Of a DNA stretch of 64,000 bases, positions 1 through 57,804 are shown piece after piece. Position 1 is the first letter of the stretch; the number at the start of each line of letters is the position of its first letter. The stretch comes from Eledone cirrhosa. Taxonomy: Eukaryota. The notes beneath the pieces were generated by a model. That model made no database searches. It had not been told where the DNA came from and saw only the letters and a program-made list of their open reading frames with translations. The translations under genes and the position numbers were made by a program. The DNA lies in NCBI GenBank assembly GCA_964016885.1, contig OZ024740.1, positions 349,928,001-349,992,000 of the forward strand, read 5' to 3'.

Positions 1-1575
1 AGTGGCAACATCTACTCTAGGATTAAAGTAAACGGCTACCTCTCGGAGCCGTTTCAAATCACCCGATCCATCAGACAGGGGTGCCCCCTCTCCTCCCTTC
101 TGTACGTATTGACTCTCGAGCCACTGCTGCGGAAGTTGGAGTTGCTGCGGGGCATACCCCTGGAACCGGGATTGCACAAAGCGGTCTCGGCCTATGCCGA
201 CGACGTAACAGTAATGGTGGCGGACGCCTCGGAAATCGGGGCGATCGCCACCCTACTGGAGGAATACGAAAGGCTGACGGGGGCTAAGCTGAACCAGGAC
301 AAGTCAGTCGGTTTGCAACTCGGAACGTGGAGGGGCAAACCGATGCCGTTAGACGGTGTCGTCGGGCGGTGGACGGAGGGCCCGGTGAAGCTGCTCGGGG
401 TCTGGTTCGGACCGGACCTCCAGGTGGAGAAGAATTGGGGCGAGGTGACGAGCAGGGTGTTTGCGCTGACCCAGAAGTGGGCCAAGTGCAAACTATCACT
501 GAAAGGTCGGGCGGAGGTGACGAACGCTTACATAGCGTCCGTCATCTACTACCGCCTGACCGTCGTGCCTTGCCCCAAGGAAAAGCTCACCATCATGGAA
601 CGCATGCTCTTCCAGTTCCTCTGGAAGAAGCGGCCTCCCATGGTGAGGAGATCCATCTGCTGCCAGCACCCTTCGAAAGGAGGGCTGGGTATGCCGTGGC
701 TGTTGATGCGTAGGCACGCATTGAGGCTACGGCATCTACAGGTATTCCTCAACGGTCAGCCGGTGTGGGCCCCGTTTGTGAGGCGAGCCTTCCCACAGCT
801 CGTCTCGCTCACCGAACTGCAATCCTGGGTGAAGCAAAGACCGAGAAAACTGGGCAACTGGCACACCGAGTGTGCCCAGGCGCTCACGGCTATCTGGCAA
901 GCGGACCCGACTGTCAGTGGAGAATCCACCTCGACATTCTATAGAGGGTTGGTGGCTAGCAGGGGCGACGACACCCTTGGAGAGTCGCTAGGCATGGAGG
1001 AGGACGAACTGGCCAGCCTGTTCGGTAGAACTTTCGGCCCGGGACCCATGGATAACTTCCAGAGGTCCCTAGCCTGGCAGTGTTACCGGGGGGCTCTGCC
1101 CGTTCGAGAAAAGCTCTACAGACACGGGCGCCCGGGCAGGGATCCCGCGAAAAAGATCTGTCCCAGATGCGTGCGCGACGAGGAAACCGTTGCGCATGCA
1201 CTGGTACACTGCCCGGGCGTTGCCGATCTGTGGGGCTACGTCGAACGACTGCTGTCGCGTGTGGCGCCGATTCGATTAACCGCCGAGTCTGTGGTGAACA
1301 TCAAGCCGCCTCCTCCCTTCAGAAATGAAGCAGAGGCGGTCTTTCTGTGCGTAATAGCCATGATGAAAGAGGTTGTGTGGTGGACGCGCCTGAAAGGTCT
1401 GAGGTCGGGTGACTTTCTCTCCGGCCATCACCTGGTTTACTTCTTCCGATACCACTTCGGAAGAAGAATCAGGATGGAGAGAGAAGTGCTTGGTCCCAGA
1501 CAGTTTTATGAAAGGTGGGTGAAAGAAGCGAGAATGGCCCGTGTAAATGGGCCTTCTCTCTACATTGTTCTGTAG
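1..1575 (+). CDS. ORF2 C-terminal half (RT + CCHC zinc finger), 5'-partial
   Basis: Frame 1 reads SGNIYSRIKVNGYLSEPFQITRSIRQGCPLS into the 109..1575 ORF. Confidence 0.9.
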   Translation, partial: SGNIYSRIKVNGYLSEPFQITRSIRQGCPLSSLLYVLTLEPLLRKLELLRGIPLEPGLHKAVSAYADDVTVMVADASEIGAIATLLEEYERLTGAKLNQDKSVGLQLGTWRGKPMPLDGVVGRWTEGPVKLLGVWFGPDLQVEKNWGEVTSRVFALTQKWAKCKLSLKGRAEVTNAYIASVIYYRLTVVPCPKEKLTIMERMLFQFLWKKRPPMVRRSICCQHPSKGGLGMPWLLMRRHALRLRHLQVFLNGQPVWAPFVRRAFPQLVSLTELQSWVKQRPRKLGNWHTECAQALTAIWQADPTVSGESTSTFYRGLVASRGDDTLGESLGMEEDELASLFGRTFGPGPMDNFQRSLAWQCYRGALPVREKLYRHGRPGRDPAKKICPRCVRDEETVAHALVHCPGVADLWGYVERLLSRVAPIRLTAESVVNIKPPPPFRNEAEAVFLCVIAMMKEVVWWTRLKGLRSGDFLSGHHLVYFFRYHFGRRIRMEREVLGPRQFYERWVKEARMARVNGPSLYIVL

Positions 1576-1806
1576 GTGAAGAAGTGAAGAGGAAAGGGGG
1601 AGCGCCTCCTCTCTGGGCTTCCCCCGCGAAAAGAGTTGCACACTTTTCGGGGTATGTGCAATCCCCAACACGCCCCCTCCCTTTTGAGGACTTTTTATTG
1701 TTATATTATTATTGTTATTCCTTTTTTCTTTACTCGATTTATGTAAACTCCCCCACTGTGTAAATGTCCCCTTCTTTTGTGCCCTCGTGGCAAATAAATA
1801 GAAATT
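1..1806 (+). mobile_element. Tx1-clade non-LTR retrotransposon copy A1 (3' part, runs off window start)
   Basis: Frame open 1-1575 with RT motifs QGCPLS and YADD and C-terminal CPRC-x8-H-x4-C; 3' UTR ending in AATAAA followed by (CTAT)n. Confidence 0.93.
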
Positions 1807-1905
1807 TATCTATCTATCTATCTATCTATCTATTTATCTATCTATCTATCTATCTATCTATCTATCTATCTATCTATCTATCTATCTATCTATCTATCTA
1901 TATAT
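1807..1905 (+). repeat. (CTAT)n microsatellite, Tx1 target
   Basis: Direct read. Confidence 0.98.
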
Positions 1906-2207
1906 CTGAAAGGTGGGTGAATGAAGCGAAAATGGCCCGAGTGATTGGGCCTTCTCTGTTTATAAGCCTGTAGGTTGAGGAAGAGAGCAAAAGGAAGAAA
2001 GGAGCACTTGCACAACACGCTCCTCGAGTTGAGGGTTGTTCTATCGACGGGGTATTAAACAACCCATTTGTGGCGCCTCCCCCCTATTGGGGATTTCGAT
2101 TGTTGAAATTGTTTGTTTTTATATTTTTTACACGACTGTATGTAAAATCCCCGGCATGTCTTTGTATTGTCCCCTTTCTTGTTGCGCCCTTGTGGCTAAT
2201 AAAGAAA
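1906..2207 (+). mobile_element. Tx1 copy A2, heavily 5'-truncated (about 300 bp)
   Basis: ERWVNEAKMARVIGPSLFISL* plus a 3' UTR nearly identical to those at 44186-44420 and 56282-56515. Confidence 0.92.
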
Positions 2208-2227
2208 TCTATCTATCTATCTATCTA

Positions 2228-56515: not shown

Positions 56516-56537
56516 TCTATCTATCTGAGGAGATCCA

Positions 56538-56557
56538 CTGTGGCTAATAAAGAAACA
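56538..56557 (+). mobile_element. 20-nt Tx1 3'-end micro-insertion
   Basis: CTGTGGCTAATAAAGAAACA between two copies of TATCTGAGGAGATCCA. Confidence 0.8.
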
Positions 56558-56561
56558 TATC

Positions 56562-57667
56562 TGAGGAGATCCATCTGCTGTCAACACCCATCTAACCGAG
56601 GGCTGGGCAAGCCGTGGCTGATGATGCGCAAACACGCACTGAGGCTACCGGTGTGGCTGTCGTTTGTGAGACGAGCTCTTCTATAACTCGTCTCTCTAAC
56701 AGAGCTGCAGTCCTGGGTCAATCAAGCAAAGACCGAAAATGGGCGCCTGGCACCTCGAGCGCCTTCAGGCGCTCACAGCCCTCTACCAAGCGGAAACGGC
56801 AATCAGCAAGACTCCATTTAGACATTCTATAGGGGATTAGTGGAGGATAAGTGCGACGTCGTTCTCAGGGAAACTCTAGACAGCAAGGACGACGAACTGA
56901 CCAGTCTGTTCGGGAGGAGTTTCTGTCCAGCGCCTATGAATAACGCCCAGAAGTCTCTGGCCTGGCAGTGCTACCAAGGATCTGTACCAGTTCGAGACAA
57001 AATCTACAGGCACGGACGCCCCGGCAGAGATCCTGCCAAAAGGACCTGTCCAAGATGCGAGCAGGACATCGAAACCGTTCTGCACGCAATTGTTCAGTGC
57101 CCTGGGGTGACTGATCTGTGGAATTATGTCGAACAGCTACTTTCACGTGTGGGACGCATCCAGTTGTCCGCCGAATTCATTTTGAGGGTCATCCCACCGC
57201 CTTCATTTAAGAATGAAGGAGAGGCGGTTTTCCTCTTTCTGGTGGCCATGGCGAAAGAGGCAATATGGTGGACGAGGTTAAAAGGACTGAGGGCAAACAC
57301 CTTTCTCTACAGACAACAACTCATCCCCTTCAGAAGGAAGGTGAGAGTGGAGAGAGAGGTGCTACAAATCAGTAAATTCGCTGAAAGGTAGGTGAATGTG
57401 GTGAAAATGGCTCGATTGAATGGGCCTTCTCTGTATATAAACCTGTAGGTTGAGGAAGACAAAACGTGCTCCTGGTGTTGAGGGTCTTCTATCCACGGGG
57501 TGTAAAACAACCCCGCAGTAACGCCCCCCCCTAATGGGGATTTCGATTGTTTTATTTTATATATAGTTTATTGTTATACATCATTGTTAAAGATTTTATG
57601 TAAAACCCCCCGCCGTCACGTCTTGTAATGTCCCATTTTTGTACGCCCTTGTGGCAAATAAAGAAAG
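56562..57667 (+). mobile_element. Tx1 copy C2, older diverged 3' fragment
   Basis: Decayed ORF2 tail with CPRC...H...C, stop at 57448; followed by (TC)n. Confidence 0.9.
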
Positions 57668-57804
57668 ATCTCTCTCCCTCTCTCTCTCTCTCTCTCTCTC
57701 TCTCTCTCTCTATATATATATATATATATATATATATATATATATATATATACATATATCACAGAAAAAAGAGAATCAGTGTTGCGACGAAAGTAATTTA
57801 TTGG

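Follow-up and report, generated by a model that had tools for sequence, protein, structure and literature searches.

What decides where a retrotransposon that homes to a microsatellite will insert: its endonuclease, or the RNA that it brings to the site? The question is raised by a 64,000-nucleotide stretch of the Eledone cirrhosa genome (assembly GCA_964016885.1, contig OZ024740.1, positions 349,928,001 to 349,992,000 of the forward strand; here called the window), in which long interspersed nuclear elements (LINEs) of several families stand head to tail among CTAT repeats. These elements encode an apurinic/apyrimidinic (AP) endonuclease (APE), and one family, B, was found to use a second target, AATAT. 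We lean cautiously towards the view that in this natural APE-type LINE the target would be programmed by letters read through from the element's own landing site, inherited with no protein change, and flipped twice very recently from the saturated (GATA)n to the abundant AATAT.

Fourteen element ends were found in the window, all on the + strand and grouped into three head-to-tail arrays, with only CTAT units as spacers between the copies. Thirteen of the 14 read AATAAA-(A)GAAA-(x)-TATC with no poly(A), including one with an A-rich insert at 26635 and one with a T-run at 25480; the fourteenth (57668) runs into ATCT and then (TC)16(TA)21, with no CTAT. An identity matrix of the 3' untranslated regions (UTRs) sorted the ends into seven types, with 88-100% identity inside a type and 51-70% from one type to another. 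The numerous (TA)n and (CA)n tracts of the window contain no element copy. A preliminary description of this DNA, made from its letters, had listed 14 same-strand insertions in three multi-family arrays, a near-uniform end without poly(A), at least seven 3'-UTR variants on a common target and no copy in (TA)n or (CA)n, and all of this was recovered. In the whole genome, the 3'-end patterns gave 1371, 446 and 66 matches and their reversed controls gave 0, which rules out chance.

Is CTAT a target, or only a tail that the element makes? Family B was sampled with a 3'-end pattern that leaves out CTAT: 97 of the first 100 matches among 1371 were examined, 96 were aligned and 91 belonged to family B. 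Seventy-five of the 91 were CTAT-ended, 13 were AATA-ended and 3 had other ends. The 5' junctions were compared in the 72 CTAT-ended copies of at least 93% identity, and 57 of them carried at least two CTAT units there, against a background of 0.19% of 10,200 windows. Short targets were followed by equally short 3' repeats, and short or imperfect targets were repeated on the 3' side together with their unique letters (L010, L015, L052, L068, L106 and L109). Duplications with non-repeat letters were also seen at L331 and at the window copy e13, whose target-site duplication of 16 bp (56522-56537 / 56558-56573) includes 12 bp of non-repeat sequence. The presence of CTAT at the 5' junctions of most copies and the duplications that extend beyond the repeat indicate that the elements truly target CTAT/GATA and produce short target-site duplications there, and that CTAT is not just an element-made tail. 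The opposite reading, that CTAT is a tail and no targeting takes place, could draw on the lack of poly(A) and on 3' tracts that can be long; we regard it as refuted, because randomly truncated copies have CTAT at their 5' junctions (57 of 72), short targets give short repeats, and the duplications include unique letters. A shuffle control of the duplications was uninformative for CTAT copies (56 observed against 41.9), as repeats match each other. Two observations weigh against the overall reading favoured here: 15 of the 72 copies had no CTAT on the 5' side, and 5' matches were weaker in the older families (9/18 and 14/29).

Families A and E behaved similarly at their 3' ends. A search for a second family with AATAT ends was uninformative, as it matched family A's own ...GAAATATA end, and its loci were used as a sample of family A. 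CTAT-type 3' flanks were present in 25/30 and 28/30 copies of family A, the latter set chosen by a pattern fixing the first letters past the end, and in 27/30 of family E; the 5' side carried CTAT in 9/18, 13/15 and 14/29 copies of the A and E sets. A family is called target-specific when one sequence type makes up more than 20% of its flanks (accessible text of PMC4494074), and these values, like the 75/91 of family B, lie far above that level. The (TC)n or (TTC)n targets that define Kibi and Koshi were not the prevailing flanks. The window copy e14 was considered as a marker of a (TC)n-specific family and rejected, as 27/30 family-E ends have ATCT (a set that includes e14 itself and duplicated loci). 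The CTAT/GATA target proposed in the preliminary description is upheld, since the 5' flanks were not mostly non-CTAT, and the lineage is indeed multi-family and recently active. In the literature we found no GATA-specific Tx1 family; supplementary repeat libraries were outside the scope of this search, so an existing catalogue entry is possible. The CTAT-targeting, recently active LINE families are real and represent a new target for a known habit.

To which clade do the elements belong? Both intact second open reading frames (ORF2) of the window contain APE (PF03372), reverse transcriptase (RT; PF00078) and zf-RVT (PF13966) domains according to Pfam, and the APE catalytic residues were invariant. 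An N-terminal APE, an RT and a C-terminal CCHC motif in ORF2 are the L1/Tx1 layout, in line with the preliminary description, and the elements are L1-clade LINE retrotransposons. The closest protein in the PDB, which holds few clades, was human L1 ORF2p (E=5e-54, aa 5-857), followed by R2 (E=4e-22). A full-length family-B copy measures 5.8 kb, with an ORF1 of 596 aa and an ORF2 of 1148 aa. ORF1 has a single CCHC knuckle below the Pfam cut-off (E ~0.1) and no Transposase_22; its look-alikes in Atlas were CCHC/RRM and ZCCHC3-type clusters (0.90-0.93), and an ORF1 with RRM/zf-CCHC (Type I) is tied to Tx1 in the accessible text of PMC5203782. The nearest named protein was from Argonauta hians (65% across the RT region), and protein searches with the element ORFs gave no named Tx1 reference among the matches. 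Tx1 membership is consistent with these data by layout, not by tree. A 3' hairpin (GCC-5 nt-GGC) appeared in 4/5 minimum-energy folds, weakly, with z values from -2.5 to +0.6.

Does family B use CTAT alone? Genome-wide, its end was followed by TATC in 1012 cases and by AATA in 113, and 11 ends had a non-A second letter. We examined 53 AATA copies, 13 of them unselected and 40 picked by tail. They insert at Y^AATAT in non-repeat DNA. An anchored duplication was present in 30/53, and it reached at least 9 bp in 23, compared with 0.63 in shuffled pairs. In the anchored copies the base at -1 before AATA was C or T in 30/30, position +5 was T in 27 of 30, and +6/+7 were nearly all A or T. On the 3' side, +1 to +4 were fixed by the way the copies were selected, but the 5' copy of the motif was left free; there AATAW was found in 38/53 AATA copies, against a background of 14% and 6/72 CTAT copies. 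One copy classed as 'other', L097, has the end CAATCTATC, a tail that looks like an intermediate. Three of the four full-length AATA copies start, after the duplication, with G and a CTAT-like leader, so the RNA has target-like letters at its 5' end too; the leading G may be a copied cap.

Some AATA-type insertions recur at one and the same position within minisatellites or within a dispersed repeat (L012, L035, L036 and L268 at C1 35.2-36.2 Mb; L149-L151 at C1 431.6 Mb; L100 and L180). Four loci at C2 401.0-401.5 Mb (L169, L263, L280 and L281) have one common 5' junction with differing 3' haplotypes and flanks, which suggests segmental duplication and recombination between copies. At L214-L216, L218, L219 and L221, family B continues into (TC)n or (TCTG)n, and these copies are possible further off-target founders; among the 11 genome-wide ends with a non-A second letter, 4 lie in plain (TC)n and a further 2 in (TCTG)n. 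L026 is a related 3' end that the window library does not match; ATT-rich sequence follows it, and it probably belongs to a different Tx1 family, one that targets ATT.

Is the second target accompanied by a change in the protein? Within ORF2 aa 1-250, 3/10 AATA copies were identical to the CTAT copy L107, and no change was common to all ten. The AATA copies form two clades. In clade 1 (0.30% from its majority) the only ORF2 difference from young CTAT copies was D932Y. Clade 2 (0.69%) is without D932Y and has P17S, G480S, M858I and A1052S, and P17S and S480 are present in the CTAT copy L040 too. No endonuclease change was specific to AATA copies and no ORF2 change was common to both clades. Sister lineages with differing targets are about 99% identical, and those with an identical endonuclease domain use differing targets; this is indirect evidence that the endonuclease alone may not suffice for specificity, and the simple attribution of specificity to the AP endonuclease in the preliminary description is not supported as it stands.

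Could DNA recognition have been altered convergently by ORF1 changes, or by ORF2 changes that lie beyond the endonuclease (for clade 1, D932Y; for clade 2, G480S, M858I and A1052S)? Among copies covering position 932, D932Y was present in 23/28 AATA and 0/28 CTAT copies, and a comparison of four window families showed D or E at this position; the residue lies beyond the part aligned to human L1 ORF2p, in what we take to be the wrist region. We consider such convergence improbable, however, because the clades have no change in common and the positions are not conserved across wider relatives. Moreover, Y932 also occurs in the young CTAT insertion L262 and in five older non-AATA copies, I858 and S1052 in the CTAT insertion L263, and S480 and S17 in the CTAT copy L040.

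Copies were also selected by a single-nucleotide polymorphism (SNP) in the body instead of by the tail, which avoids the circularity of the tail-picked set. With the D932Y motif, 34/40 copies were AAT-ended, three of them AATG (two of the AATG copies being segmental duplicates); the exceptions were the five older copies and L262. With the A1052S motif, 7/10 were AATA-ended. L263 combines I858 and S1052 with a CTAT-type duplication and is a young insertion at a CTAT site. This selection bears on the idea that one endonuclease hits both motifs, so that the AATA copies are sporadic off-targets multiplied by later duplication or selection, with no inherited preference. A few A-family copies do end in AT-rich flanks, and some AATA copies are segmental duplicates or minisatellite clusters (L169/L280/L281 and L012/L035/L268). 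The idea is nonetheless very improbable and largely refuted by the body-SNP selection, in which 34/35 young D932Y copies were AAT-ended; the AATA copies also have private SNPs in common while their truncation points and flanks differ, and they lie on many chromosomes.

A tree was built from 37 copies covering the last 2.3 kb, with insertions ignored; shorter copies, copies below 96% and the near-duplicates L082, L084, L280 and L281 were left out. L262 and L263 were sister to the two AATA clades (supports 75 and 85; clades 76 and 61), so that each clade has a CTAT-ended sister with some or all of the clade's other ORF2 changes. A single AATA clade was rejected by the approximately unbiased test (p=0.006; 2000 replicates, too few per the program, and a constrained tree from a fast search). 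From these comparisons, the target probably switched twice, in two young clades. Mosaic copies mean that, instead of two origins, a single tail could have been transferred to two bodies; in both cases the target goes with the tail.

Alternatively, a different Tx1 family, with an endonuclease preferring Y^AATAT, might have mobilised the AATA copies in trans through its ORF2 protein, and (GATA)n would be all that their own enzyme cuts. In favour of this, no AATA master was found to be fully intact, and ORF1 was broken in 4/4 full-length AATA copies. Yet ORF2 is intact in the AATA copies L036 and L167, the GAAATC-AATA junction is as exact as the junctions of CTAT copies, and the ORF1 breaks vary between copies and are equally common in CTAT copies. 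A helper of this kind is in our view unlikely, though not negligibly so.

We find it fairly probable, judging from the junctions and flanks, that a loose endonuclease makes the nick, that the primer pairs with 4-5 nt of RNA read through beyond the element and that the donor's flank is inherited as the target. The loosely specific endonuclease would nick AT-rich DNA, with its bottom-strand cut falling at T^R, which on the top strand reads Y^AATA or T^ATCT. Transcription would continue beyond GAAATC into the flank of the donor copy, because cleavage normally takes place 10-30 nt past AAUAAA. Its first 4-5 read-through letters would pair with the freed DNA end, and reverse transcription would start there. 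As the RNA tail would be taken from the flank of the donor, a copy that on a rare occasion landed at AATAT could found a lineage with a new target. Several observations weigh against this account and against two switches. The nick register at CTAT is ambiguous, 23/53 AATA copies have no duplication, and the mixed A/T at +6/+7 of the target does not fit one donor tail. ORF1 is broken in 4/4 full-length AATA copies, so that no autonomous master was found among them, and clade 1 has fixed differences in ORF1 and in the 5' region as well. Tree supports are modest (61-87); L262 and L263 are single copies, for which recombination or movement in trans is possible, and the mosaic copies L143, L146, L150 and L154 show that recombination occurs.

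How does this compare with known systems, taken from the accessible portions of the papers cited? Kibi at (TC)n, Koshi at (TTC)n and crocodilian Tx1 families at (TTCC)n/(TTTC)n (PMC4494074, PMC3812793) are likewise APE-type L1/Tx1 LINEs inserted into microsatellites in a fixed orientation, whereas the target here, (CTAT)n/(ATAG)n, is absent from the targets described for them in those portions, and none of the microsatellite-targeting APE elements catalogued in that of PMC3812793 is a GATA element. Tandem insertions around a duplication are described there for SINEU-3 (PMC4494074, PMC3812793). Microsatellite homing of APE-type LINEs is described as poorly understood, and the endonuclease is generally held responsible for it (PMC3812793), as it mainly is for Kibi, Koshi and the crocodilian families; a switch without endonuclease change is not described in those portions. 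For R1Bm and SART1Bm, it is proposed that the RNA ends at its 3' side in letters resembling the target, and that these anneal to the nicked strand and make priming more accurate (PMC7265360). Target-like letters are proposed here as well, but those elements belong to the R1 clade, pairing refines a site fixed by the endonuclease, and the accessible text reports no natural target change. In human L1, also of the L1 clade, the snap-velcro model requires some 4 terminal bases to be paired with the RNA tail, and grafted endonucleases did not redirect insertions in vivo (PMC4014453, PMC1950540). Primer pairing with the tail is proposed here too; L1 pairs through poly(A), whereas the tail here would copy the donor's flank and so be changeable between lineages. 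R2 was retargeted by template homology arms in STITCHR (PMC13586686), where, as proposed here, an RNA template can redirect insertion; that system has a restriction-like endonuclease and engineered templates, in contrast to an APE element with an apparently natural, inherited switch. Thirteen recently active L1-Tx1 families are known from Octopus vulgaris (PMC13282606), and the word 'target' is absent from the accessible main text of that paper; the accessible text of PMC9004415 and PMC9115989 held nothing relevant to these elements. What is added here is a target switch in nature, probably one that happened more than once, with the endonuclease unchanged.

If the reading of an RNA-programmed target is true, a change of 4-6 nt in the RNA should be enough to retarget the element. 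Were the tail to decide, Tx1 families could begin to shift their targets without protein evolution, and the element would be a candidate RNA-directed integrase. The near-identical sister lineages, with the same endonuclease and differing targets, form a natural controlled pair for separating the shares of protein and RNA.

Is a special mechanism needed to build the arrays? A related element adjoins 32/75 CTAT-type and 0/53 AATA-type family-B copies. The start of a four-unit CTAT tract had 27,717 genome matches, with interrupted tracts counted more than once. In a hand-picked sample of 40 tracts, one per cluster in the first 24 Mb of C1, small and not random, 22 adjoin an element. Because so many tracts are already occupied, no special array-building mechanism is needed and that candidate was rejected; adjacency looks like random choice among tracts, a by-product of target saturation. 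Each insertion would duplicate CTAT and leave a landing pad at both ends, and with about half of the long tracts occupied this could yield multi-family arrays. Since roughly half of the long GATA tracts in the sample have an element next to them, the elements may have a part in shaping such microsatellites in the host. At L329-L331 and L275, repeated insertion took place exactly at the end of an older copy, and a mild liking for element ends is possible.

Array 1 (1-6935, 3 copies) comprises e1 (1-1808), a LINE 3' part with its 5' end beyond the window and ORF2 open at 1-1575; a (CTAT)n spacer (1810-1901); e2 (1906-2208), a 5'-truncated family-B copy with 313 bp 100% identical to e12; e3 (2228-6818), a family-A variant truncated in ORF1 with a frameshifted ORF2; and the closing (CTAT)29 (6820-6935). 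All features of the three arrays are on the + strand. Array 2 (21577-48317, 8 copies) opens with (CTAT)n at 21577-21732, followed by e4 (21733-22098; family B-like, 5'-truncated), e5 (22110-25493; a UTR type of its own, truncated in the endonuclease and frameshifted), e6 (25556-26659; family C, 5'-truncated) and e7 (26694-32497), a family-C copy of near full length (5.8 kb) with ORF1 and ORF2 frameshifted. Then come e8 (32625-36696), a family-A copy truncated in ORF1 with an intact ORF2 (APE-RT-zf-RVT; 32993-36430), and e9 (36711-39370), a 5'-truncated family-A copy 98.5% identical to e8. The family-B copy e10 (39400-44424) is truncated in ORF1 and has an intact ORF2 of 1148 aa (40739-44185) with conserved APE catalytic residues; a short family-C piece lies upstream at 39381-39403. 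The last copy, e11 (44519-48303), is older, with an internal deletion and a UTR type of its own. Array 3 (55372-57710, 3 copies) opens with (CTAT)n at 55372-55483 and contains e12 (55485-56516; family B, 5'-truncated), with an apparent 13-bp duplication extending into the first bases of e14, the 20-nt 3'-terminal micro-insertion e13 (56538-56557) and the degraded family-E copy e14 (56562-57668), whose 3' flank was described above.

An identical 23-nt family-C piece follows CTAT at both 25556-25578 and 39381-39403. This pair may reflect a long duplication, with e6 joined by homology to a short C-derived stub at the 5' end of e10 and e7-e9 arriving later. The ORF1 stop (about 32963-32972 and 40692-40701) overlaps a splice-donor-like AG/GTAAGT, and the ORF2 ends (36430 and 44185) read TAG/GT. 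A dispersed repeat of about 190 bp, resembling a short interspersed nuclear element, is present on both strands in copies 85-97% identical (11157-11262, 11560-11752, 18424-18623, 18720-19000, 19771-20033, 48992-49180, 50522-50716 and 54808-55005). Finally, at 7159-9058 a direct duplication of 400 bp (97%) and two pairs of inverted repeats lie between (TA)n tracts; this may be a miniature inverted-repeat transposable element or the remnant of a DNA transposon.

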